DNA from: Psammoneis japonica
Taxonomy: Eukaryota
DNA length: 31,895 nt
NCBI GenBank assembly: GCA_008632985.1
Contig: QPGO01000253.1
Location: 62,001 to 93,895, forward strand
Direction of reading: 5' to 3'
A model generated the notes under the pieces. The model ran no database searches. It was not told where the DNA came from and worked only from the letters and a program-made list of their open reading frames with translations. This document shows, in pieces, positions 4,597 through 22,728 of this stretch; within the stretch, counting starts at the first letter, position 1; each line of letters opens with the position of its first letter. The position numbers and the translations under genes were made by a program.

Positions 4597-6932
4597 ATGA
4601 TGAGGAATGCGTTGCTTCCGCTACTCGTTGCCGTCCAGGCAACCAATGCCTACAAGATCGCCCTTGTTCCCAAGATGACTTCGGCGGTTGGGTTTTACGG
4701 ATTGGTCGAGGAAGGATGTCAAGACAGTGCCGATCAGCAAGAGAACGTAACCTGTTTTTACAACGGAACTTTTGATGCAAGCGTCGAAGGATCTCTAGCT
4801 ATTCTGAACGACCTTATCGACGACGACACCATCGATGGCATTTCTATTTCAGTCCTGGATCAAGACGCCTACACGCCTGTGATTAACAGAGGGATTGCGC
4901 TAGGAAAACCCATCATCACGTTTGACAGCGATGCTCCTGAATCGAACCGCCTGGCGTACATTGGAACGAACAACTACGCTATGGGAAGAGAACTGGCCAA
5001 GCTATTGAAGCAAATCAAACCAGACGGAGGAACATATGGTATTGTTTCTGGCTTCGGACATAATTTACAGGAAAGAGTTCAAGGGGTCCGAGATGGTTTG
5101 GAAGACACACCATGGTTTGAAGTACGCGATTCCCCCAAGAATGGCTTGGAAGATTCCGCTATCAGCCTTGAAAAGATGTGGGAGTTGGTCCAGGAAAATC
5201 CAGCGATAAACGCGATTGTTTCCGTGGTGGGGTTGGTAAGTTTCAATTGAGCTCACTCCTACCAGGTGTACTGTCAATTTGTTTCTTTCTCACATCGGAA
5301 CGAACTCTTACTTTTTGTCTTCAGCCAATGTTCCCAGAGAACACGACAAACTGGAAGAACTTTGTCGATTCAAATCGAGACGTACTAACAGTGATCGCTG
5401 ACGCGCTCCCAGTTCAGCTTAGATTAATGCAAACGAGCTATGTTGACGCCCTCGTGGGACAACTACCATACAACATGGGTTTTCAGTCGGCAAAACGCTT
5501 TTGAAGGTTCTTGACGAGATCAACCAAGGCACTCCGTTAAACGAATCATTACCGTCTGATATCATCTTTGGCACCCATCAGCTAGAAGTCCTTCGCATTC
5601 CGCTCAAATTGCCCCCATTAAGTTTCAATTTCCACTACCTTGGGAATGTGGTTGTCGTCGGATACGTTCTCTGTGCAATTATTATCTTGGTTTCACTTGG
5701 GTTTGTGTACTGGACCGCGTACTTCCGAAAGAATCAGGTTGTCAGGGCTGGTCAACCGATTTTCCTCACCATGATTTGCGCTGGGACAATCTTGATGGCA
5801 TCGGCTATAATTCCTCTGTCCATTGATGACGAGAACAGCCAAACGTCCGCCGACATTGCTTGCATGTGCTCGCCGTGGCTCATCACCATTGGCTTCACTG
5901 TTTCCTTCTCGGCTCTCTTTAGTAAGACGTGGCGGCTGAATCAAATCTTTTTGAGTAAGAATTCCTTGAGACGAATCACGGTGACGGAGAAAGACGTAAG
6001 TATGCCCCAGCTCAATGTTTAACGTGAATCCATAGACATTATTTGTTCTCATTCCATGCGCACTTGTTTGCCAGGTCATGTTACCGTGTGTCGTTCTTTT
6101 GACGATGAATGTCATTGCCCTGATTTGTTGGACTGCGATCGCTCCGCTTAAATATGTTCGCACACTGGAAGATGGGACGGACCCTTGGAACCGTCCTATT
6201 GGTAGTTACGGTCAGTGCAAGAGCACTTCAGGCGCAGCTGGGAATTCTATTCCCTATTTAGTTGTCATTGCAGTCATCAATATTACAGCTCTTTTGGTGG
6301 CAAATTTCCAGGCTTACCGAGCTCGCAATATTAGGACAGATTTCAATGAAAGCTGGTACATTGCACTGACTAATGCGAGCATGCTGCAAGCGATTGTGGT
6401 CTGCCTGCCGATCATTTTCCTAACAAGAGAGAACCCTCAAGCTTATTTCATTGTGCTCTCAGTTGTACTGTTTATTGTTTCGGGAGCAATTCTGGTGTTC
6501 ATTTTTGTTCCCAAGACCCTTGCTTTGAAGAAGCGTCTCAAGAACCAAGACAGCCTGAAGAAAACTGTGAAGATAAGCGGCCTCCGTCTAAGCGGAGTCA
6601 CCGAATTGTCCGAGAGCCAACGTGCAGACATAGCTCAGGGAGGAGATGACCAGGTCAAGGCCCTATTGCAGCAATACCAGCTTCTCCCTTGGGAGGACAA
6701 AATGGCAGTGAAAAAGAAGCTTGCGATAATTTCAGAGGCAGGGTCTACAGTGTACTCGAGTGAGAGCCTGAAGCAGGTGACCTTTCAAGTGGAAGATAGT
6801 ATCCCTTCGAAGGGAGACGCGATTAGTGACGGGGTGGATTCAATTCCAGAATCAAGCCGGAGCGCTACAGAAACAGCGCCCGGAACAAGCTCCGATGGAC
6901 TTTCAGACGTCGCTGATGACATGGAGGCCTAA
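4597..6932 (+). CDS. Class C (GABA-B-like, 7tm_3) GPCR with an N-terminal type I periplasmic sugar-binding-protein-like domain; one frameshift
   Basis: Signal peptide, then RbsB-like motifs (DGISIS, GKPIITFDSD, YIGTNNYAMG, LQERVQG, VDALVGQLPYNMG). The 7TM part has VVRAGQPIFL, CMCSPWLITIGF..FSALFSKTWRL, FNESWYI and IFVPK. Introns 5236-5324 and 5996-6074 (GTAAGT..CAG). One extra A in the run at 5492-5495 would give SAKTLLKV and join the frames. Confidence 0.88.
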
Positions 6933-8747: not shown

Positions 8748-10146
8748 TTACGATTCACATTCTCGTCGCTGTACTTTTCTTGGAAATTGACTCACAACGT
8801 TGACTTGTTGCATATTTTCCAAATTCACTTGATATTTGTTGTCGTCAAGAGACACCAACATGTTGGAATCGTCATCTTGACAGTGATACCGTTGATAGGC
8901 ATCTTCTAGTCGTACTCGACTCTCCTCATCATAGGATTTCCATCCACCATCCGTGTCGTACCACCAAGTGAAGTGTGGAGATTCTTTTTTTCGTAGTGGC
9001 TCCATAGTGCCGTTTCCATCATCATTACTCAGCACATTGGATTCCGATGATTGTCCGCGATTTAGGAGTGCAATCTCGGTAGTGGTCAAGAGTTTTCCTT
9101 GAGGTGACTGACAGGTAGGACACGCCGATGCTGAACACGCAATGACAATGCGACAGGTGTCGCACCACCAATCTCCCCATCGATAAGAAGTTTTTGATTG
9201 AGATCGAATAGCGATAGCACTAGTGTTGGACGATGATTCTTGTTTTGACGCCTTGTCATTTGAATCATCTAAATGAACGATATCTCCATTTCCGTTCTCA
9301 TGAATTCATTGTCCGTCAATTCGCAGAGCTCTGGGTTTCGATCTTGTTGTTGCCATCGAATAAGAGACCAATTCCCGCGTTGTTTTTAATCCGACAGTTT
9401 CGTATCACGACATTAGAGAATGGAGCATCGATACAGAGTTCAACAGCAGCCTTGTCCCGTCTAATTGTGCCCTGGACTGTACAATCTGTCATTTTCAAGC
9501 TCGTACCTCCGTAAGCATACAATGCCCGAATCGTATGATCCACCAACTGACAATTTTGCAAGGTTAATTGACACGAGTTGGATGGTTTGGTACCGCCACT
9601 TGCTCTCATACAAATTCCATGAACACCCGCATTGATAATTTGACAATCTTCCAAATGACATGTGGTGGCACCGAATCCCACCACGGCCGATCTTGCCGGA
9701 GCGTACAAACGACAATGAATCAAGCGTAATTGCGAGGTTTGTATACCCCACACCGCGAAACCTGCAATCGACGTAATTTCTGCATTACAAACTACACATT
9801 GGGCCCTGTTTCGTACATGAATGGCAGCACCAATTTGTTGAACGGAATCAACATCCTCTGGACTTTGATCATGATGCAAATTTATGTTGTGCAGATGCAA
9901 TTGACTTTTTTGATCCAAGAAGAACAAGGAATGGGTACTGCCAAAAATTGTTGGCTTATGGCTTGAAGAATCACAGACAATTTCCAATCGTTGGCGCTTT
10001 TGTAACCGAATTCTCTCTGGTAGGCGGATCATACAGCACGGATCTTTTGCAGGTGTGACCAAAATGACACGACCACAACCTTTCTCGATAACTGATTGAC
10101 ATGCCTGATGAAACACTTGTGATGAAGCATCATCGTTCGAAGACAA
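8748..10146 (-). CDS. Right-handed beta-helix + RanBP2-like zinc finger + WWE domain protein; apparent frameshifts at about 9295-9330
   Basis: 9316-10146 has parallel beta-helix repeats. The frame leading into ORF 8748-9089 reads GDWWCDTCRIVIACSASACPTC (about 9110-9177), followed by a WWE domain (WWYDTDGGWKSYDEE..LEDAY..YQVNLENMQQVN..RKVQR). Two 1-nt corrections give a natural CELTDNEFHENGNG linker. Confidence 0.68.
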
Positions 10147-10698
10147 TGGACAATTATATCATGTCATTCTCGGCTTTCGCCCCTCTTGTCGTTCGTCATG
10201 GGATGTCGTATCGTCTTGGTGGTCGCAGAGTTGAAAGATCGAACTCGCACGTCGCACGAACGCGCACGCAGAAATCTCAAGCTAAAAAAATCGCACCATG
10301 AGCACTCGCAACGCGGCACCGCTGGGGAAGAACAATGGTTTTCCACGCAAAGGTGCCAATAAGAAAAACAATTTCCAATTTCTGTTTCGCCCCTCTTGCT
10401 ACTTCTTCCTGTCGCAGCTTCGTACCGGCACAGCTTCACAGCTAGCTTCATGCAGCTTCACGACGAAGGCATGATGTGCGAATGTTGGATCGCTTTTTTT
10501 GTTGGCTGGTGGTTCCTGATTCCTTCTAAGGTGACTGACGACTGACCGACGCTCCCGCCTTTTTTTGTCGGACGGATATCGTCTGAGTCGTCCCGCGCCA
10601 TGACGTGCCGTCGATGTTCGTCGATTCGTCAGGGGCATCATTAGTGTTATCATATCGTCCTTTCCTACTGGACAAAGCGTTTGTCATATAACCGATAC

Positions 10699-13182
10699 AT
10701 GTCCCTACCGTCGCTCAGCACAAGACGTCTTTTTCCTTCTTTTCTACTCGTCGGCTGCTTCAACGTTCATTGCGTGTTTCCGTGGTCGTCACTTGTGATG
10801 CCAACTCGAAGATCGCAAGTTTCAGAAACAAGCATGAAGGAAATTGATACAGAAGAAAGAGATGTACCAACATGGTGCCCTGAGCAACAGATTTATATTG
10901 GAGGAATCGTACCAGATAATTCAGAGGTTGAGGCCTTGCTTTCCGAAAATGGCGGACAGCTACGAATCTTTGGATACGGTTCCTTGTGTTGGAACCCAGG
11001 TCAGGGTGCCGTTCTATCGTCTCCGGGCGTTACGACAACGTTGGGACGGGCTCGTGGATACAAACGATGTTGGGCCCAGCGGAGTGCCGATCACAGAGGA
11101 ACACCAGGTGCGTTCACACCTTTGTTCGCCGCGTGACGTAGTGTTTGCCACTGTTCTGTTGCCATTTCGTTCGGTTGTTCGCAGCTGCTGCACTACTGTA
11201 ACACCCGTTTGATCTTTACTTGCCATTTTGACTGATCAATCGCCACCTCCCTTGAAACTGTGCAGATTTTCCAGGTATCGTGTGCACTCTTCTGCGAGAT
11301 GATGAAGTGCATCAAATCAAAAAGGAGGCTCATGACAGAAGCGAGCCCCCATCCATGACGGAAGGTCTAATCTACACAGTACCCCCAGAGCTCGTGGATG
11401 ACTGTCTTTCGGAGTTGGATTTTCGTGAAAAAGGTGTAAGTACGTTTTTTTCATCATTGCATACCTATCAAGACGACAGAGCCGCATGGTACTCAAACGC
11501 TTCGTGCTTCGCCGTTTCTCTCAGGGTTATGCTCGTGATGTCATTGATGTTGTCCAAGACGATACGGGCAAGTCAGTGAAAGCTTTGTTATATCGTGGAA
11601 CTCCTGATAATCCAGCGTTTTGGAAACGAGCATTGCTAGATTTACCATTTGCCGCAGGTGAGTTCTTTTGTAATTATCCTTTCTCCGTCTCCTTCAGGTT
11701 CTCATCTGCCAACCATGCGTCTTTGCTTCATTCGAAAGCAACAATGGCTCAAGCGATTGGACCGAGTGGAAAAAATGACGAATATTTGGTAAGAACACGG
11801 TGCTGTCAAATAATATATACTCCTTCCATCTCATTAACTCCGCCACGTCGCCTCTTGTGCAGTTTAAATTGGATCATTTCCTTTCAGATGCCGTAGCCAC
11901 ATCACAGGCTGCAGCTGCCGCACTCGTGGATCATACCGGTGATAGCGACACTGGGTCTCTTGCCTCCATGGCACGAAGCTTTCAGCAGAAGCAGCTCTTC
12001 TTCTTGTTTGGGAGCGGTTCCAATCAACACAATCAGCTTTTGTTGGGCGACTCATCCAGTACTAGCAATGGTGCCAGTTTGGTAAACGGAGACGAAGCCC
12101 ATGAGCTCACAGAGATTGTTTTAGTTACTCCAATAGCCGCCGAAATAGAGAAACCCAAGCAACTTTTCGCGGGTGGGGGGCACAGTGGACTGCTGACTGG
12201 CTGCGGCACTTTGTACCTATGGGGCTGGAATCAAAATGGGCAGCTTGGACGCAAACTTGAAAATGAGGAGTCATCACCAATACAAACTATTGAAGCTTTG
12301 AAAGGGATAAAGGTAGAAGCTGCTGCTTTTGGACATGCCCACACCCTTGTGATTGAACTCGGCACTGGATTCCTGTATGCCTTTGGTGATAATGGCAGAG
12401 GTCAAGTAAGCGAACAAATGGAACAATCCACAATATCAGAGCCAGTCAAGCCTTTCTCCGAAAATTGCTTCATTGCTGTCGCTGCCGGTTTGTTCCATTC
12501 TGCGGCCATTACAGAGGAAGGAGACCTTGTAACGTTTGGATGCGGAAAGTTTGGGCAGAGTCTGCTTCGAGAAATTGAAAAGTGGCGTCCCCATGACGAC
12601 AGCAGATTGGTTGGAGTTGCCTGTGGTCGTCGGCACACGGTATTGCTAGACGATCGCGGTCGAATCTGGACAATGGGCGAGAACAAATATGGGCAGCTCG
12701 GACGAGACTTACCTTCTTCGACCAATGGGAAGTGGGACTCGGAACCTCGGCTCGTGGAGGGAATACTTGGATCGGGTGACTGTGAACATTTTAAAGTGGC
12801 GTGTGGCTGGTCTCACACAATAGTCACTGTGAAAGCAAAATCAGGCGTCACTGAGATATACGGGTGGGGAAGAAACGATAAAGGTCAACTGGGCACAGGA
12901 TCTCGCTCTTCTGTGCATATTCCTACTAAACTATTCAGTGACGAGTCGCGTATCCGAAAAGTTGCTTGTGGTTCAGAGTTTACAATGGTTATGGATGAGT
13001 CGGACAAGATCTTTGCTTGCGGTTGGAACGAACATGGAAACCTGTCGGCAGGACATACCGAGGATGTTCTGGAGTTGACGGAAATCAAAGGAGCCAGAGT
13101 CACAGCACCACCGTCGCTCGACGGAACTGGTGAAAAGTTGTTTGCCGCTGGCGGAGCTCACTTTTTGGCCATGATTTCATAG
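10699..13182 (+). CDS. ChaC-family gamma-glutamylcyclotransferase fused to an RCC1-repeat beta-propeller
   Basis: ChaC motifs IFGYGSLCW, HRGTPDFPGIVCTL, LDFREKGGY and GPSGKNDEYL. Introns 11108-11265, 11436-11524, 11658-11738 and 11789-11862 splice in frame into RCC1 repeats (WGWNQNGQLG, FGDNGRGQ, ACGRRHT, WGRNDKGQLG). Start is 10699 or 10798. Confidence 0.85.
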
Positions 13183-13227: not shown

Positions 13228-14635
13228 TCAGTTCCATCTTGGACCACAAACGCACAAGTCTGCTTCTCGTCGATTTAGCCAGCAGCAGGGACACGTTTGT
13301 GCTCGAGAACCTTGCCACGATCTTGCCCATATAATGTAAGCGTACCTATCTCCGGATGTAACTTGTGTGACTTCATGCAAATGACGACCAGCGTGAAATA
13401 GTGCTGTTCCAAGGCGTGGCTGAAACTCACCAACCAATCTCCCGGAGTCTGCATCCTTGGTCCCGCGCAATCCCCAAAAGTTCAGAGCTCCTCCTTGAAA
13501 CTCGTCGCCAATACAAAGATTCATTGTTACCTCCGAGTCATCTGTATGAGGGACGAGTCGGTGACGGGTTGTACCCGTCTGTGATGAGGGATCAACAGAA
13601 TACCCAGCAACGTACCCGTGCCTCCAGTCGAGTTCATCCATGCTTTCGCTTGCCGTGAAAAGATGCCGTGATATTGGCCGCATAACAAGATGAAACAAAA
13701 GGTCGTTGACCCATGCAAGCCCAATGGTATCGAGATCCGTGGGCCTGCGCCCCAACTTTAAGTGCGATAGTTCTTCAGTGTTGCCTGCTTCCGATATCTC
13801 TTTGATGTAATTTCTTAGCTTTGCGCAGAACTGAAAACAAAACCTTTAGCATTTCGCTGTCTCTCTAGAAAGTAGCATATCCTCTAGAGAGAGAAGTGAA
13901 TTTGCTTACCTCACTCGATAGCACCGGTAAAGAATACACATCAAACATTTCTTGGTCCATAATGTCCTCAAGCATCGCGGCGTCAAGTTCCACCGGGGTC
14001 TGGCCATTAAGGACTTCTTGAAGATTGGGAGGCCCCGACTTGAACTGCTTGGACCGAAATATGGCGCTTACCATCCTCGGATCTAACACATTGTTTTTGA
14101 CATCCTCCCATGTTTGTGGTGCAAGAGGTCCAACTTTCTTGTTCTGATTGACAGCATTGACTACGTCAGCAATTCCCCTCCTCAAGTCTAGAACATGCTG
14201 TTTCTGGTCCCGAACTTTTTTTAGCTGGGATTCTAGTGCCTGTTCCAATTTATCAATGTCATCCGTGGACCATCTGTTGAGATAGTTTGGATACCGATCG
14301 AGGCCTTCGAGGGCATGCCACAAGTGCGAGCGAACATTTACGGGGTCGTACCGTGAGCCCAATGTGTGTGCTCTACTTGCCGTGGTGGGTGTAGCGACAC
14401 GGTCAAGTCTTCGTTCTTTTTCGTTTATCGCGCCACCTCCAAGCTCTACCGAGGAACCAGTTTGATTCATTATGTTGTGTTGTACTTCTTCCGTTGCACC
14501 CGCCCTCGTGCAAAGTGCCACGCTAGTTGCCGCACAACAAGTCGGTGCACCACCAACCACAGCTTTTGACGCATGAACCGCGCCAATGGATAACCAAGGG
14601 AGCAGAAAATTCTTGCCAAAGCACGTCCTAATCAT
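13228..14635 (-). CDS. 2-oxoglutarate/Fe(II)-dependent oxygenase (OGFOD2/PLOD-like)
   Basis: HxD motif LVPHTDDSEVTMNLCIG..FQGGAL, distal His in HAGRHLH and the 2OG-binding Arg in SGDRY. Intron 13831-13909 joins LPVLSSE to FCAKL in frame. Confidence 0.85.
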
Positions 14636-14735
14636 GGATCACTGATGAAACAATCGTTTCACAGAATTTAAGTGCACGTTGCTGAATGATGCCTTTTGGA
14701 CTTTGATGTTGACGGGGGGGGATTCGTGAAGGCGA

Positions 14736-14752
14736 GTAAATACCGTATTTAC
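14736..14752. promoter_or_regulatory. Perfect 8-bp inverted repeat in the divergent intergenic region
   Basis: GTAAATAC-C-GTATTTAC; a second inverted repeat TGAAAC-AATC-GTTTCA lies at 14646-14661. Function is not shown by the sequence. Confidence 0.3.
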
Positions 14753-14983
14753 GGACAGACGTCGGAGCGAATTTTTTGAAAATTGTCGGAGGGAATGATG
14801 ATAAATTATAATCGTATTCGAATAAAATTTATGAATTTAGAATCATCCATCAATAATCATCCTCGAAGCAAAGCACAAAGCATCGCATAAGGTCTACTGT
14901 GTCTTCTTGAGCAGTTCTTTCTTTGTTAAGACTGCTTCTTACTAACTCGCAGCTAATCCGACGCAAGGATTTTTGTGGAAAGA

Positions 14984-17310
14984 ATGGATCCTGTCGACGT
15001 TGAAATACGAAACAAATTCCAGGATTACACCTTCGAACAAGAAACACAAGCAGACACGCAACACGACGAGCTGGGATCGCAACTTCCTGAAAGCATCTCA
15101 TGGCGAGTCAGCAACAGCTGGTCACTCATTTCAGGGGACAGACTAGAGAAAGTGGTAAGCGTTCTCGTCCTCTCCTGATGTTGCATCTTTTGTATTTCAC
15201 CATTTCTATTGTTCTCTCTACTCTAGGGAGTTGATTGCTTTCTCAGAATGTTCGACGAGCACCCTGAACTTCTTGCTCTGTTTCGTTTTGGTGGCGAATC
15301 CATCGCTCCCAATAAGCAAGGAATACGCGATTTACCCGCAACTCTAAAGCACCATGCTCTCGTTGTAATGCAGACAATCGGTCAGTGTGCCTCAGGGCTC
15401 ACAAAGTTGGAAGTACTTGTACCGAAACTTAGAGCCATTGGCAACGTGCACGAGTCTGCAGGAGTTCAACAGCACCATTATGATATTCTTTTCAGGCACC
15501 TCATGGAAGCCATTGCGGCGGAGCTAGGGCCAACGGAATTTGATGGAGAGACTAGACAAGGTAAGCGCCTTTCATCATCTCGGAGGAGGAGCGCCAACTA
15601 GTTCCCTTGAGCTTGGTCGTTCATTCATCTGTTTTCTTCCGTCTTCTCATAGCTTGGGAACTCGCTTTCAGATCAATCACGAGAATCATTGATCGTCCTA
15701 AGGACGTACTTCAGATGGAACCACTCGAAGGATATGGGGCACTCAATGCTGCCGCGTGCATGTATTTCACATTCTATGCACCATTTCGGATGGCTGGATT
15801 TACAGCAAGAAACGAAATCATGGAAGCGACATTCAACATCCTCACAACTGCAGCATCTTTTGTGCTGGTTCTTGATCTAGGAAGTCATTGGATTGTGGAT
15901 CAGCTCAGACGTCGGGAATTTAATGATATCTCGAAATGTGGCATCCTGCGTAGGAATATCTACCGATTTCTCTTCCCTGTGAAGTTCAGGGTAAGACGAT
16001 TTGTTCGGGGATTGGGGATGCAAAGATGGGCGAACTGGCGTGAAATGGACTTTATAGTACTCATGAGCTTTCCGTTGCAGTACGGTACGAATCTTATTTT
16101 CGGGCGCGAACCGCGGGCTGCGGGGGTTCATTGGACCTATACGCTCGGATTGCTGCGGATGGCAGCTGGAGCTCGAGTACTTCACTTTGTCAGGTGTGCC
16201 GAGAACAACTTGATGCTTCGACGTCGCGTTGAGCGCAGTGAACTGATGATGATTCGTGTTGTAAAGCTCTTGATCACAATGTTGGCTTTCATTCATTTTT
16301 CAGCCTGCCTATGGTGTATCGTGGCACGAGTTGAGCTTGGTCCGTCTACCGTCGAACCCAAAGCATCCTCATTTTTCCCAAATCCTGACCTTTTGATGGG
16401 TGGAACTGGAGTTTTGAATTCTTATATGCATGCCATTCATTGGGCTTGGGTGAATCTTGCCGGAATTGGAGAATGTGATTCCGTTCCTCAATCGTCGCTC
16501 GAATGCTTCATCATTCTCATCATCCACTTTTGCGGTGCGACTTTGTACACAGTCATGACGGGAAATGTCGTTGCTATTCTGGAGGAAATAACAGCAGAGC
16601 AGAATGAAACATCAACCGATCTCGCTGATTTGGGTCAGTATATGCATCGATGCCATGTCCCTGAGCACGCACAAAGACGAATTATGCAGGGGTATATGAT
16701 GCGTCAAGTTACGAGTGGTTCCTCGTCCGAAGATAAGGAATCGTTTGGAAGCGCACCCATTGCGCCCGCAATGGTCGCTCGGCTTCCAGCATACTTGCGT
16801 CAGGAGCTCAATTGTTACAGCCGCGCTGAGGCTATCAAGAACCGTGACCCTGCGTTTGGACAATGTAGCAACGAGTTTCTCTTTGCGATTGTTGGGGCAC
16901 TGAAATCCAAAACGGTACTTCTTCCTGGAGATTACTTTGTTAAAGAATCAGAGAACATACCCCAGCAAGTGATTCTGGTCGAACAAGGTACTATTGAGGT
17001 AATTCGAGATCGTAAATGCGTTCGACTTTTACAACGAGGAGACATCATCGGGAAAAGATGGTTGCTGAGCACAGGTGAGGTGGAGGAGTCACTCAGCGAG
17101 AAGACATCCTTACGAGCCGAAACAGCCTGCACCTTAGTTACTGGGCTTGGTTGCATAAAATCAGTCCGAGAGTTGAGTGAGCGATACCCAAAGGATTTTG
17201 CTTTGCTTCAATTCAATCGGCAACGCATTCTCGAGATACGAGAGAGCAGCTTAAAACGAAGGAACTCTCTTGAACTCTCGATCTCATCGCTGATGATCGA
17301 GGAAAGCTAA
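14984..17310 (+). CDS. Globin domain fused to a 6TM CNBD-family (KCNH/HCN/CNG-like) ion channel
   Basis: Introns 15155-15226 and 15561-15652 join the three ORFs in frame. Globin: A-helix SW, MFDEHPELLALF (CD1 Phe), LKHHA (E7), IGNVH (F8), H-helix AW. Channel: S1-S4, S5 IHFSACLW, pore helix YMHAIHWAWVNLAGIGECD, S6 ..GNV, C-linker (LPAYLRQEL) and a CNBD-like fold (PGDY, GTIEV, GDIIG). Confidence 0.88.
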
Positions 17311-17717: not shown

Positions 17718-20126
17718 CTACGGCTCAACTCCCTTCAATGAATTGAGAACATCCAATCCGTCCGTGTCGAAAAGCTTTGAAGCGTTGCTCTTGCTAACGG
17801 TTTCAAGCCATCCCTTTTTCTGTTTCTTGCTCGGATTTTCTTCCGGTTCTGATTCCATCACCTTTACTTGATCGTCTTCGAGAACACCAGGGTTCGCACC
17901 AGCTGTGTGGTCACAAGGGTATTGAACGATGAGACGAACACAGCCAAACCTTTCCCCAACAAGCTTGGGCACTACTTCCTCCCAGCGCCGCTTCAGACCT
18001 TGCTTAGACGTTATCTTAGTTGCGAGCTTCGGATCCGTATCTCGATTTTGATGGTATAAAAGGCTGGAGTGACCGATCTCAAAGCTTCCATTAGATTGAC
18101 ATTCTTTCTGTATTTGGCTTGTGATATGACCGCACGTAGTCTATGTACGAATCATTCCACATTATGAACATGAGATCTGGTCCAATTGCCGTGTCTGGGT
18201 AGCAGAATGGTGGCACTTGGCCCTCAAAAGTACAAGTTGTTGCAGCTTCGATCCAATGAATTGTCGCACTAGCGTCCTTGCATGACACAGCAAGCATTCC
18301 GTAGGCCGACCTATGGGGCACCGTATGCTTTTTCAAGACATCCCCTTTGTCGCCAAGCTGTTCTTGGAGTATTTCTGGAAGTCTCTTTTGAATCGCTGGC
18401 AGCATTACCTTCTCGAATAATCCTTCACCTAAGCCACCATCCTCTTGCGCTTTCATGTTGTCGATGGCCGTTGCTGGAGTGAGAAAAAATTGATGCCAGC
18501 TTGAATCACAATTGGCTCGTAGAGAACCGCCATGTTACTTTCGCAACTAAGAGCAGCTAAGCCAACCTCAACAAGCTCTGCGTGGTGCTTAGAAATGTAC
18601 ACCGGCTGTCCTCCAACGGCAAACTTGAAAGCGGCATTCTCCAGCACACTGGCAACCTGATGCCCTCCCTTCTCGACTGCGTGCTTAAAGGCACTGTACG
18701 CTGTGCCCTCAGGCGGGTCGAATGATTCTCGTCTGTCCCCACCCATGCCATCGAGATTCTTAATCGTTTCCCCGGTGTACTTGTCAATGTAGCGATCTAA
18801 AGCCTCTATCAGCGCGCACCCCTGAGCCGAGAATGATCCTCTCGTCCCGGTGTAGTTGTCTCTTTTCTCTCGTACCAAGTATAGCTCCAAAAAGGATGCG
18901 GACCACCGTGGGCAACCTCGAAGCCACTTGGAGATGTGACCAATCACGCTAGCAATTGAAGCTTTCCCTATTTCTTCAGGATCATCCAAGTCCAAGTCAA
19001 TGAAAGTGAGAAGATATTCTTGGACAGCGTTTTGGCATCGTGGATGTTGAAAGCCTTGAAGACAGTCGTGCTGTTCTCCGATAGCGTATGTGGCCGTTTT
19101 GCCATGACCGAATACGATGCTTCCCTGATCTCATCAATCGACATTCCTGTACCGGCTGCCAGTGGAAAGCCTGTATCTGAATCCAGAGTTACCGTCAGCA
19201 TGTTCGTCAATGCCTTGAGCACAGCAGAAAAGGCATGTCGCTTTTCACCCCCGTTCGAACTAAGGAAAAAATCATTTAGTTTTTTCAGAAGCTCTTGTGC
19301 CTCGTCTACCACCATCGTAGTCCAGGGCAGCACTTTTTCTCCGTTACGATTGTCAAGGGCAACTGTGACACTGACATCGTTTGGCCTCGTAAAGGCGTGA
19401 ATAACACATTTACCACAGACAAGACTAAAAAGGTCTTTTTCAATGCCTCCTTCGGGAACAGTTGCATCAAGAGCCAGTCGTACGGCGTGAGTTCTTGTTT
19501 CTTTTTGATTCAGCTGCTTGTTAATCGCATCGAAAACGGCAATTCGTCCAGCACACAATCTTGATGTGTCGATCCATGTTTCGCTGGTTCTCGTCGCTTC
19601 GGTTTCGTTGTCGCTGCAGTTGTTACTTTTCATCATCTTGGGAGTCACCTCCATCCAATTCACCCAGAAAATTATGTCCATGAAACTCCTGAAACGAACC
19701 CATCAGTCTCGATAGATCCTTCGACCCAGGGTCATTCGTTGTCTTAGCCACAAAGTACAAGCCAAAGTTGTGGCTGAGGCATTCGTAGACGGCGCGTGTT
19801 TTCCCCGCTCCTGAAGTGCCATACAATCCACTACAAATGTCCTTTGTTCCGTCAATGAACTGTGAACCTCTGTGCATTTGTGCGTGTCATTCTGGAGATC
19901 ATGCAACAACAGTGAAGGAATGGGAAGCTTCGTGCAGGAAGGATCCTGAGGAATGGTGCTGTGCTGCATTGGAGATCAGCCAATGGACCCTTCCCTGTGG
20001 ATGCATAAATGATTCCAAGCAGAAAGATTCATGTGGATGCTCATTGAAGTGCTCATCTACAAGATCAGAGCACAGTTGAGCAACAGTGCGCGCATCGGCA
20101 TCGGTTTCTGCATTCGCAGTTGCCAT
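17718..20126 (-). pseudogene. Crinkler/RHS-like P-loop NTPase + restriction-endonuclease-fold gene, disrupted
   Basis: Walker A GTSGAGKT, Walker B MVVDEAQ, AGTG, then PDTAIGPDL and SQAK (nuclease-like). Two in-frame TGA at about 19887-19901 and frameshifts near 19650, 18990, 18460 and 18110. Likely start MATANAE at 20126. Confidence 0.68.
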
Positions 20127-20428
20127 TGTTGTGGTTTTTGGAGAGAGAGCTGTTGTTGTTTTTGTTGTCGCTAAGAACAACCGAACGCCCACACCCACAC
20201 CTTCCATCTCCACGATTGCGACGATGCAGGTTCACCAGGCACAGCAAAAGTCTGTTGGCAAGCAACGCTTGCAAAATCGTGCAGTTGTGCTCGAGACATC
20301 ATGACATCTGGTCTACGTTGCCGGTCCGGATCTCTGCGTCCGTGCTCTTGCGCTGTCTGCGGCAGTTTTCTGCAGGCTTTTGTTCAACCTTATTTTCAAT
20401 TTGCCACCACATGCCAGACAATGTGACG

Positions 20429-21180
20429 ATGAGCAATTTGCGGGCAAGAGTTGTGCTGAGTGCCTTTGTGAGCTCAATCGTTTTGTTGTTGCAACAGAAG
20501 GCCTTTGTTGGTGGAGAAACCGACGAATGCAAGCCCCAAAATGCGGCAGTCATGACCCTTGTGACAACGAGCGATTGCGTCAAGGGCGCAAAAGTGTTGG
20601 CTCACTCTTTGGACAAAGTGAGCGCCTCTGGCGACCGAGTTTTGCTTTGCGCATTTCCCGAAGACGACCCTCATTTAGATCTCACACAAGAGCGTGTGCT
20701 CGACCTCCGTGATGCCCGCTGGACCAAGACTCGGAGACTCGCGTCAAATGACGGAACGCTTTCCATGTGCAAAGCATCAAAGGAGCAGCAGCGCACATTT
20801 GAACAGAGTCCAAAAGAGCTGGCTGGGTCAGCAAGATGCTGGGGAATGAGCAGCAAATTTGCAGTCTGGATGCCAGCTGAATGTGATGTCATCGTCTGTG
20901 TTGACGTGGACAGCTTGGTGCTTGACAATTTTGACTTTGTGTGCGATGTGATGAATGGGGCGAGTGGCGCCACCCTTTTGGCTCAGGGAACGCCATGTTG
21001 CTGGGAGGATCCACCTGACTGTGGCGCATTTTGTGGTGCTTTCATGGTTGTCAAACCCATGCCCCACATTCACAAATGCTCTCATGACCTTTCAGCTGAA
21101 AATTTCTTGGCCAAGGGGAACTGCCGCTGCTGAATCAAGTTTGCAAATCATGGCAGCCACTCCCTCGACACACACCGGCG
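20429..21180 (+). pseudogene. Truncated, hypermutated duplicate of the GT8 glycosyltransferase
   Basis: Aligns to 21682-22437. Every Tyr is replaced by Cys/His, YIDAD becomes CVDVD, there is a 1-nt deletion near 21115, and it is cut at the duplication junction. Confidence 0.95.
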
Positions 21181-21349: not shown

Positions 21350-21681
21350 TGTTGCAGTTTTTGGAGAGAGAACTGTTGTTGTTTTTGTTGTTGTCGACAA
21401 GAATAACCGAGTGACGCCCACACCACACCTTCCGTCTCCACGATTTCAGATTGCGACGATGCAGGTTCACCAGGCGCAGCATTAGTCTGTTGGCGAGCAA
21501 CGCTTGCAAAATAATCGTACAGTTGTGTTCGAGATATGATAACTACGTCGCCGGTCCGGATCTCTGCGTGCTCTATGCTCTATCGCGCTTACATCGCGCT
21601 GTCTGCTGTCTGCGGCAGTTTTCCGCAGGCTTTTTTCTTTTTCATTTTCAATTTGCCACCATTCCAGACAAAAATGCGACG

Positions 21682-22728
21682 ATGAGCAATTTGCGGGTAA
21701 GAGTTGTGCTGAGTGCCTTTATAAGCTTAATCGTTTTGCTGTCATTGCAACAGAAGGCCTTTGTTGGTGGAGAAACCGACGAATACAAGCCCCAAAATAC
21801 GGCAGTCGTGACCCTTGTAACAACGAGCGACTACGTCAAGGGTGCAAAAGTGTTGGCTTACTCTTTAGACAAAGTGAACGCCACTGGTGACCGAGTTTTG
21901 CTTTACGTGCTTCCCGAAGACGACCCTCGTTCAGATCTTACACAAGAACATATACTCGACCTCCGTGATGCCGGCTGGACCAAGACTCGGAGACTCACGT
22001 CAAAAGACGGAACGCTTTCCGTTTGCAAAGTATCAGAGGAGCAACAGCAGATAATCGAACAGAATCCAAATGAACTAGCTGGGTTGGCAAGATACTGGGG
22101 AACGTGCAGCAAATTTGCGGTCTGGACGCTAACTGAATATGATGTCGTCGTCTATATTGACGCGGACAGCTTGGTGCTTAATAATTTTGACTTTGTGTAC
22201 GATATGATGAATGAGATGAGCGGTGCCACCCTTTTGGCTCAGGGAACGCCAGGTTGCTGGGAAGATCCGCCTGACTGTGACACATTTTATGGTGCTTTCA
22301 TGGTTATCAAACCCATGTCCCACATTCACAAATACCTTCATGACCTTTCAGCTGAAAATTTCTTGGCCGAGGGCGAACTACCTTTGCTGAATCAAGTTTA
22401 CAAATCATGGCAGCCACTCCCCCGATACACATTGGTGGCTCAAACCGAAACCGCACGACCACGTCCGAATGATGACCCAAACCAAAAAGTGGATTGGTCG
22501 CGTGTCGTAGTCTACGACTTTTCCGGCATGCCTCAAACCAAACCGTGGGTAACTTACGCGTTGCAGAAGGAACAGGGAAACAAGTATGCGCACGGTTATT
22601 TTGGAAGTTTGCCCGCCGGATCTCCCAACGTTGATATTTACATGGAACCGCAGTGGATATGGAATGAATACTACGATGCTATCCTACAAGAAAAGAGTGC
22701 CAGAGGCAGCACGGAACCCGACCTGTGA
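21682..22728 (+). CDS. GT8-family (glycogenin-like) glycosyltransferase
   Basis: N-terminal signal/anchor, AVVTLVTTSDYVKGAKVLAYSL, SKFAVWTLTEYDVVVYIDADSLVL (DxD), LLNQVY and KPW; intronless ORF. Confidence 0.9.
   Translation: MSNLRVRVVLSAFISLIVLLSLQQKAFVGGETDEYKPQNTAVVTLVTTSDYVKGAKVLAYSLDKVNATGDRVLLYVLPEDDPRSDLTQEHILDLRDAGWTKTRRLTSKDGTLSVCKVSEEQQQIIEQNPNELAGLARYWGTCSKFAVWTLTEYDVVVYIDADSLVLNNFDFVYDMMNEMSGATLLAQGTPGCWEDPPDCDTFYGAFMVIKPMSHIHKYLHDLSAENFLAEGELPLLNQVYKSWQPLPRYTLVAQTETARPRPNDDPNQKVDWSRVVVYDFSGMPQTKPWVTYALQKEQGNKYAHGYFGSLPAGSPNVDIYMEPQWIWNEYYDAILQEKSARGSTEPDL

Follow-up and report, generated by a model that had tools for sequence, protein, structure and literature searches.

Introduction

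Sensors of the globin-coupled type, for example HemAT, DosC, AfGcHK and, according to the available text of PMC8076648, a membrane-bound sensor of Geobacter, are built from an N-terminal haem globin followed by an output module. A gene located in a 31,895-nucleotide stretch of the Psammoneis japonica genome (contig QPGO01000253.1, positions 62,001 to 93,895 of the forward strand), referred to here as the window and numbered from its first nucleotide, follows the same order: between positions 14984 and 17310 of the plus strand, it almost certainly encodes a globin fused to an ion channel of the cyclic nucleotide-binding domain (CNBD) family. Nevertheless, this protein differs from the described sensors in both of its parts. 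While their output is a kinase, a cyclase or a chemoreceptor, here it is an ion channel; and while they employ a sensor globin of bacterial or archaeal type, the globin found here is of the myoglobin/neuroglobin type and its host is a eukaryote.

The closest eukaryotic precedent, in the available text of PMC13331133, is GLB-33 of C. elegans, a globin fused to a seven-transmembrane receptor, in which a eukaryotic globin is also covalently joined to a membrane signalling protein. However, the partner in GLB-33 is not a channel but resembles a G protein-coupled receptor (GPCR), and homology to the protein described here is limited to the globin. The globin of GLB-33, as Tilleman et al. are said to have reported in 2015, is C-terminal. 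With regard to the globin itself, neuroglobin and the hexacoordinate globins provide the best sequence (1oj6) and structure (2vry) matches, and they share a His at both E7 and F8. These are free-standing soluble proteins, whereas here the H helix continues into the channel.

The channel part is nearest to the CNG, HCN and KCNH channels. The CNG channels (TAX-4, CNGA1/CNGA3) give the best matches both in sequence and in structure and present the same succession of six transmembrane helices, pore loop, C-linker and beta roll; the selectivity filter of the window's protein also aligns with the CNG filter, Gly and Glu included. Unlike them, this protein carries an N-terminal globin, a Lys in place of the Glu of the nucleotide cassette and a cassette insertion of variable length; moreover, the filter Glu is not conserved in the globin-channel family, and the Pfam cNMP_binding match stays under its cut-off. 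The KCNH channels (EAG/ERG/ELK), which belong to the same superfamily (8eow and 5k7l are among the matches), resemble the protein in placing a folded sensor-type domain before S1 and in having a C-terminal nucleotide-binding-like domain with a degenerate site. The original prediction had drawn attention to the PAS sensor found at this place in KCNH channels, which is sound as a positional analogy. On the other hand, a globin takes the place of the PAS domain here, a K+-type filter is missing, the cassette appears to have kept its Arg, and docking of the globin on the CNBD-like domain is only a possibility. The protein therefore has to be described by two memberships, in the globin superfamily and in the CNBD-channel superfamily: it would function in the manner of a globin-coupled sensor and has the position of the KCNH eag domain, and it belongs to neither group.

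Haem is also able to act on channels devoid of such a domain. The available text of two papers describes the inhibition of Kv10.1 by intracellular hemin (PMC9420133) and the regulation of KATP channels by haem and carbon monoxide (CO) (PMC5834611). Both channels bind haem without a globin. The means by which channels perceive O2 and gasotransmitters have long been a matter of inquiry; to our knowledge, the cases described depend on cysteine chemistry, on haem that is loosely bound or on haem proteins separate from the channel. A channel equipped with a complete globin in each subunit would be the simplest possible solution to gas sensing, and one that is easily testable.

Gene Structure and the Globin-Channel Fusion

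The gene opens with the ATG at 14984, the first after an in-frame stop, and lies in DNA of about 47% GC. It is composed of three exons and two introns:

14984-15154 (+), exon 1: ATG at 14984, short acidic N-terminus and globin A helix; 57 codons (translation P0003)
15155-15226 (+), intron 1: 72 nt, GT...AG
15227-15560 (+), exon 2: globin helices B to G; translation P0001 of 111 aa, followed by the first base of an Ala codon that intron 2 splits
15561-15652 (+), intron 2: 92 nt, GT...AG, phase 1
15653-17310 (+), exon 3: globin H helix, linker, S1-S6, C-linker and CNBD-like domain in a single open frame, with the stop at 17308-17310
15655-17307 (+), P0002, the translation of exon 3: translated open reading frame

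The fusion of globin and channel can be regarded as virtually certain. The globin H helix is formed by the first ~13 residues of exon 3, in the exon and in the frame of the channel, so that the fusion is independent of any splice prediction. In addition, the Pfam E-values of both domains, together with homologues found at E-values down to 1e-205, exclude chance. The spliced coding sequence (14984-17310, plus strand) comprises 2163 nt, which correspond to 720 codons and a stop with zero internal stops, and the resulting 720-residue protein consists, in this order, of an N-terminal 3-on-3 globin, a six-transmembrane pore domain, a C-linker and a degenerate CNBD-like domain.

The two introns have the GTAAGC donor in common. 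Removal of intron 1 restores the frame and brings together residues that are shared with homologues across the junction, and the A-helix region of exon 1 also aligns with homologues. If intron 2 were retained, the globin frame would meet a stop at 15599-15601 and the H helix would be lost. The canonical introns that the original prediction had placed between globin and channel are borne out by this model, which contains two GT-AG introns, the second at exactly the proposed positions, and no internal stop. Ahead of the globin A helix, the window's protein has only about 30 residues, where the aligned full-length homologues have about 45-270 and distant members have longer segments still; an unrecognised upstream exon may exist 5' of 14984-15154.

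The Globin Domain

Exon 2 alone matches the Pfam Globin family (PF00042) with an E-value of 4.2e-13 and 50.2 bits (cut-off 22), covering profile positions 2-103 of 117. PF00042 was the sole globin-type Pfam family at E<=1, and no PAS family appeared at this threshold in the scan of the exon 2 and exon 3 translations. The residues that characterize a haem pocket are encoded at the following positions:

15281-15283 (+), CD1 Phe codon: conserved as Phe in 31 of 33 family sequences and replaced by Leu in the other 2
15353-15355 (+), distal (E7) His codon: His in all 33 sequences covering the column
15449-15451 (+), proximal (F8) His codon: His in all 35 sequences covering the column; aligned to the F-helix His of neuroglobin

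The E7 His precedes the F8 His by 32 residues, a spacing that is identical in the aligned neuroglobin, and the C2 Pro is kept in 33/33 family sequences. Among proteins of known structure, neuroglobins are closest in sequence (1oj6, E 3.6e-5); after them come bacterial single-domain globins, Vitreoscilla haemoglobin, flavohaemoglobins and plant non-symbiotic haemoglobins.

The fold was modelled with AlphaFold2 (AF2) on P0006, a full-length homologue (55% identical), from a 34-row alignment. The model, with a mean predicted local distance difference test score (pLDDT) of 81.6 and a predicted template modelling score (pTM) of 0.75, presents helices A-H at residues 53-196, and is predicted to contain the full A-H helix complement in a 3-on-3 fold. 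Residues 50-201 superimpose on mouse neuroglobin (2vry) with a Z of 17.6 and a root-mean-square deviation of 2.7 A over 142 residues. Myoglobin follows with a Z of 17.1 (the alignments to neuroglobin and myoglobin span 142-143 residues), together with several hexacoordinate globins (Z 16-17), cytoglobin (15.5) and flavohaemoglobin (15.4), and the sensor globins AfGcHK (12.2) and DosC (12.1) come further behind. The complete 3/3 globin with CD1 Phe and both His residues that had been recognized earlier is present in the sequence and conserved in the family. The domain is a neuroglobin-like globin of the M (myoglobin) lineage with a His/His pocket, and it probably binds haem. Both the structural neighbours and the His at E7 and F8 suggest that this haem may be bis-His hexacoordinate.

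The S lineage, to which the bacterial globin-coupled sensors belong, was considered for this domain and rejected, since only PF00042 was matched and the sensor globins reach a Z of ~12 versus 17.6 for neuroglobin.

The Channel Domain and Its Pore

Three features of the membrane part are needed for the argument:

15733-16584 (+), transmembrane domain, S1-S6 and pore loop: Pfam Ion_trans, AF2 helices, Foldseek matches to CNGA1, HCN1, TAX-4 and SthK
16129-16197 (+), S4: Arg168 and Arg174 invariant, one further basic position variable
16453-16482 (+), selectivity-filter segment: P0002 residues 267-276, HMMER-aligned to the TAX-4 filter

Pfam recognizes Ion_trans in exon 3 (E 2.9e-7, 30.4 bits, cut-off 25), and the sequence matches of its translation are TAX-4 (6wej, E 3.3e-13), CNGA3, HCN4, HCN1, CNGA1, KCNH1, SthK and AKT1. 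The AF2 model of exon 3, obtained from a 13-row alignment (pLDDT 72.8, pTM 0.45), shows S1-S6, the pore helix, the C-linker helices and the beta roll, and Foldseek aligns it with CNGA1/B1 (7rhl, E 5e-15), HCN1, TAX-4 and SthK over about 500-540 columns. The same channel fold is obtained by structure search with the model of P0006. The Pfam, sequence and structure matches jointly support the assignment, already made in the original prediction, to a six-transmembrane CNBD-family channel with a C-linker and a CNBD-like domain. The S4 poor in Arg and the NLAGIGECD-type filter on which that prediction also relied are both present as quoted: S4 has the two invariant Arg and the variable basic position listed above, and the filter is CNG-like by its alignment to TAX-4.

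Conservation in S4, the filter, the nucleotide cassette and the globin-S1 linker was assessed on 13 sequences (of 67 family sequences). Within the filter, Asn267, Leu268, Gly270, Ile271, Gly272 and Ser276 are invariant in all 13. Both filter Gly, and in the window's copy also the Glu that follows, fall on the corresponding residues of the CNG channel TAX-4. At position 273, which follows the second Gly, the window's protein has Glu and its relatives have Asp, Asn, Ala or Gly, and an acidic residue two positions further on is always present in the family. The K+ signature T-x-G-Y/F-G, which marks the K+-selective members of the superfamily (HCN, KCNH, SthK and plant Shaker-like channels), does not occur in the filter segment 16453-16482, which contains neither an aromatic residue nor a Thr. 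As the filter is CNG-like rather than of the K+ type, a non-selective cation or Ca2+ flux is likely; judged from these residues, the pore is probably non-selective or Ca2+-permeable. A K+-selective pore, taken as a candidate in its own right, was rejected on account of the missing signature and of the alignment with the CNG-type filter of TAX-4.

The C-Linker and the CNBD-like Domain

The C-terminal part of exon 3 contains:

16585-16899 (+), C-linker helices: AF2 helices, aligned with CNG/HCN C-linkers
16900-17214 (+), CNBD-like beta-roll domain: Protein Data Bank matches to the CNB domains of PKG, the CNBHD of KCNH1 and the CNBD of HCN2; beta strands in the model
17050-17055 (+), Gly466-Lys467: Lys replaces the cassette Glu; aligned with the Gly-Glu of PKG and TAX-4; Lys invariant, 13/13
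17113-17118 (+), Arg487-Ala488: in strand 485-488 of the model, after the cassette helix; invariant, 13/13

The structural alignments run from the membrane domain through the beta roll, and Pfam reports cNMP_binding in exon 3 with an E-value of 1.6e-3 and 18.8 bits, under the cut-off of 27.5. In the CNBD-like domain, the canonical phosphate-binding cassette on which cNMP binding depends (Gly-Glu ... Arg-Thr/Ser-Ala) is not found: Arg487 is followed by Ala-Glu, versus the canonical Arg-Thr/Ser-Ala, and the cassette loop carries insertions of very different lengths among relatives. Gating by cyclic nucleotides is doubtful on these grounds. It had been proposed that the domain lacks both the Gly-Glu pair and the Arg of the cassette. 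The first part of this claim holds, because Lys467 replaces the Glu in all 13 sequences compared, but the second probably does not, as the Arg seems to have been retained: the predicted strand that follows the cassette helix, the usual place of the cassette Arg, carries an invariant Arg-Ala.

A variation on this site is observed in P0098, a distant family member of 823 aa that has a globin and is 24-30% identical to the window's protein across the three modules. Its cassette still has Gly-Glu, and with 29.1 bits it scores above the Pfam cNMP_binding cut-off. In part of the family, control by haem and control by cyclic nucleotides may be combined.

Conservation of the Fusion among Relatives

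A word-indexed search with the exon 3 translation retrieved 22 homologues with E-values from 1e-205 to 3e-56, one of which, P0008, is named 'Globin domain protein [Seminavis robusta]' and comes from a diatom. Together with the short GT-AG introns and the GC content of about 47%, this homologue would fit a host that is a diatom or a relative of diatoms. In this first pass, 15 of the 22 carried a precomputed Globin domain. An exhaustive HMMER search of 1.84 billion cluster representatives gave 1703 matches at E<=1e-3 and 49 at E<=1e-30; beyond these best 49 representatives, there is a drop to proteins of 1000-2900 aa that are 22-25% identical. Pfam was run on 56 representatives, namely the best 49 and 7 weaker ones picked for matching the query start or for being long, and Globin was detected in 26 of them (25 above the cut-off), that is, in 19 of the best 49 and in all 7 picked. 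The representatives without a globin are either fragments or start too near the H-helix position to hold one, and Globin is present in all those that extend at least 110 residues ahead of that position. Moreover, four homologues of 786-868 aa are encoded on contigs of only 2575-2876 nt; as these are too short, globin and channel must lie there in one uninterrupted frame.

The modules have also diverged together. Among 20 full-length members, pairwise identity averages 0.39 in the globin, 0.37 in the membrane domain and 0.34 in the C-terminal part, and the identities of globin and membrane domain correlate with an r of 0.81, a value reached by none of 2000 label permutations. This pattern fits one ancestral fusion kept intact under similar constraint. 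A search for further loci with the 13-row alignment yielded one weak metagenome locus (L001, 32% over 58 residues), and a search of the protein atlas retrieved nothing but generic CNBD-channel clusters.

No description of a globin-channel fusion was found in the full-text literature searched, a scope that did not extend to subscription-only work, and none appears in the available text of four papers on globins (PMC7475203, PMC4101818, PMC1457004 and PMC8717448). The fusion is apparently a conserved but undescribed design, whose proteins are present unannotated in public databases.

Some relatives show additional N-terminal elements. P0153 bears a pair of EF-hands N-terminal to the globin, and the more distant P0036, P0038 and P0074 have at the same side a common Cys-rich, zinc-finger-like segment, which suggests that in some members the same channel also receives Ca2+ or other inputs. 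As for the representatives ranked about 50-150, with 1000-2900 aa, most of them match the query in 2-5 separate stretches and look like several concatenated CNBD-channel repeats per chain.

Proposed Coupling of the Globin to the Gate and Alternative Explanations

The globin is connected to the channel by a short segment:

15653-15732 (+), globin H helix and linker of 13-15 residues to S1: helix at P0002 model residues 2-13

In the 13 sequences compared, Trp1 and Pro15 of this segment are invariant, Glu22, Pro23, Leu24, Gly26, Trp27 and Gly28 are at least 90% conserved, and the linker ranks among the best-conserved segments of the protein. Such conservation suggests that the globin is mechanically linked to S1. 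It can be postulated that the E, F and H helices of the globin would shift when the haem iron binds O2, nitric oxide (NO) or CO, or when its redox state or coordination changes. This movement could reach the gate directly, through the H helix, the linker and S1, to the voltage-sensor-like domain, or else through docking of the globin on the ring formed by C-linker and CNBD-like domain, in the manner of the KCNH eag/PAS domain. The outcome would be a flux of non-selective cations or Ca2+, and hence a depolarisation or a Ca2+ signal reporting O2, NO or redox state. The acting ligand could be O2, NO, CO or redox.

The favoured interpretation has several components, which do not deserve the same confidence. 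What the analysis shows is the fused gene, its domain folds and the conservation of haem-pocket residues, linker and filter; haem binding, control of the gate, ion selectivity and the identity of the ligand are deductions. The explanation as a whole, in which the gene encodes one subunit of a tetrameric cation channel of the CNBD family (CNG/HCN/KCNH-type), its cytoplasmic N-terminus is a haem-binding, neuroglobin-like globin and the state of the haem acts on the gate, is somewhat more credible than not, and much the same, a modest leaning in favour, applies to the control of gating by the haem state of the globin. The most specific version, a direct, ionotropic haem-based gas or redox receptor in which O2, NO or CO bound by the channel's own globin would open or close a Ca2+-permeable pore, is tentative and falls a little short of an even chance. 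Gas gating with weak voltage and cyclic-nucleotide dependence, as put forward in the original prediction, is a reasonable inference, helped indirectly by the invariant haem-pocket residues, the conserved linker between globin and S1 and the parallel divergence of globin and channel. Several considerations weigh against this interpretation. The model that displays the complete globin fold is that of P0006 and not of the window's own globin, and splicing and expression in Psammoneis japonica are predicted features. Many globins are enzymes, such as NO dioxygenases and nitrite reductases, and not sensors. The co-divergence of the modules would speak for one ancestral fusion that has been kept, not for signalling. 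Two invariant Arg remain in S4, so voltage could contribute to gating; the invariant cassette Arg and the Gly-Glu of P0098 mean that cyclic nucleotides could be the main ligand in part of the family; and, because residue 273 varies among relatives, ion selectivity is not readable with confidence.

Other functions can be conceived for a globin in this position. It could be a membrane-tethered enzyme or buffer (an NO dioxygenase, a nitrite reductase or a scavenger of O2 or reactive oxygen species) that protects the channel or shapes local NO and O2 without gating it, the channel itself responding to voltage or cyclic nucleotides. The presence of flavohaemoglobin and bacterial single-domain globins, which are NO dioxygenases, among the nearest relatives is in line with this possibility, as are the invariant Arg of the nucleotide cassette and the two of S4, but Pfam finds no reductase domain in the protein. 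NO dioxygenases have a Gln/Tyr distal pair, unlike the E7 His present here in 33 of 33 sequences, and a mere tether would poorly explain a globin-S1 linker that is short and highly conserved; we consider this explanation unlikely. The globin could instead be a constitutive structural or regulatory domain that tunes kinetics or assembly and senses no ligand, the haem being absent or a simple cofactor of the fold. Such cytoplasmic N-terminal domains are indeed found in KCNH (eag) and HCN (HCN domain) channels at the same place, directly before S1. Nonetheless, the strict invariance of both His and the near-invariance of the CD1 Phe speak for a functional haem pocket and not for a scaffold, which leaves a constitutive role with a low probability.

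By analogy with the K+ channels modulated by haem, of which Kv10.1 and KATP are examples, it could also be imagined that the protein senses the supply of labile haem, with apo- and holo-globin gating differently. A complete myoglobin-fold pocket, however, usually holds its haem tightly rather than exchangeably, and little weight can be given to this idea. Finally, the gene model might join by mistake two adjacent genes, one for a globin and one for a channel, or describe a pseudogene, and it is true that a search of the protein collection did not return the window's own protein. Against this stand the position of the H helix in the exon and frame of the channel, a coding sequence free of stops, the same fusion in at least 26 database proteins, some of them on contigs too short for introns, and the conservation of all three modules to a similar degree. 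An artefact of this kind is very remote, and the two-gene version was rejected on the shared exon and frame, the stop-free coding sequence and the recurrence of the fusion in those proteins.

If the favoured interpretation of a haem-gated channel were correct, ion-channel output would be added to the repertoire of haem sensors, now made up of kinases, cyclases, chemoreceptors and transcription factors, and the CNG/HCN/KCNH superfamily would gain a new N-terminal sensor. We know of no receptors for NO/Ca2+ stress signalling in diatoms, where such a protein would offer a one-protein path from the level of O2 or NO to membrane potential and Ca2+ signalling. According to the available text of Vardi et al. 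2006 (PMC1370914), stress signalling in diatoms involves a connection between NO and Ca2+. The globin-channel family is a candidate link in it. A gas-controlled tool channel is a further possible use.

Neighbouring Genes in the Window

Head-to-head with the globin-channel gene, and separated from its start codon by 345 bp (14639-14983), there are two adjacent open frames at 13231-14638 on the minus strand. The downstream one matches 2OG-FeII_Oxy_3 (E 3.4e-6, 28.3 bits, cut-off 27), so that a member of an O2-dependent enzyme family, the 2OG-Fe(II) oxygenases, lies beside a putative O2 sensor, which may be a coincidence. Further upstream, the frame at 6036-6929 (+) contains 7tm_3, the transmembrane domain of class-C GPCRs (E 2.2e-14). 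Frames 17721-19702 (-) and 20048-21130 (+) have no Pfam match. The remaining recognizable neighbours are:

9319-10158 (-), right-handed beta-helix protein: Pfam E 6e-14
11779-13179 (+), RCC1-like repeat protein: Pfam E 2.5e-67
21415-22725 (+), Glyco_transf_8-like frame: Pfam E 1.5e-5

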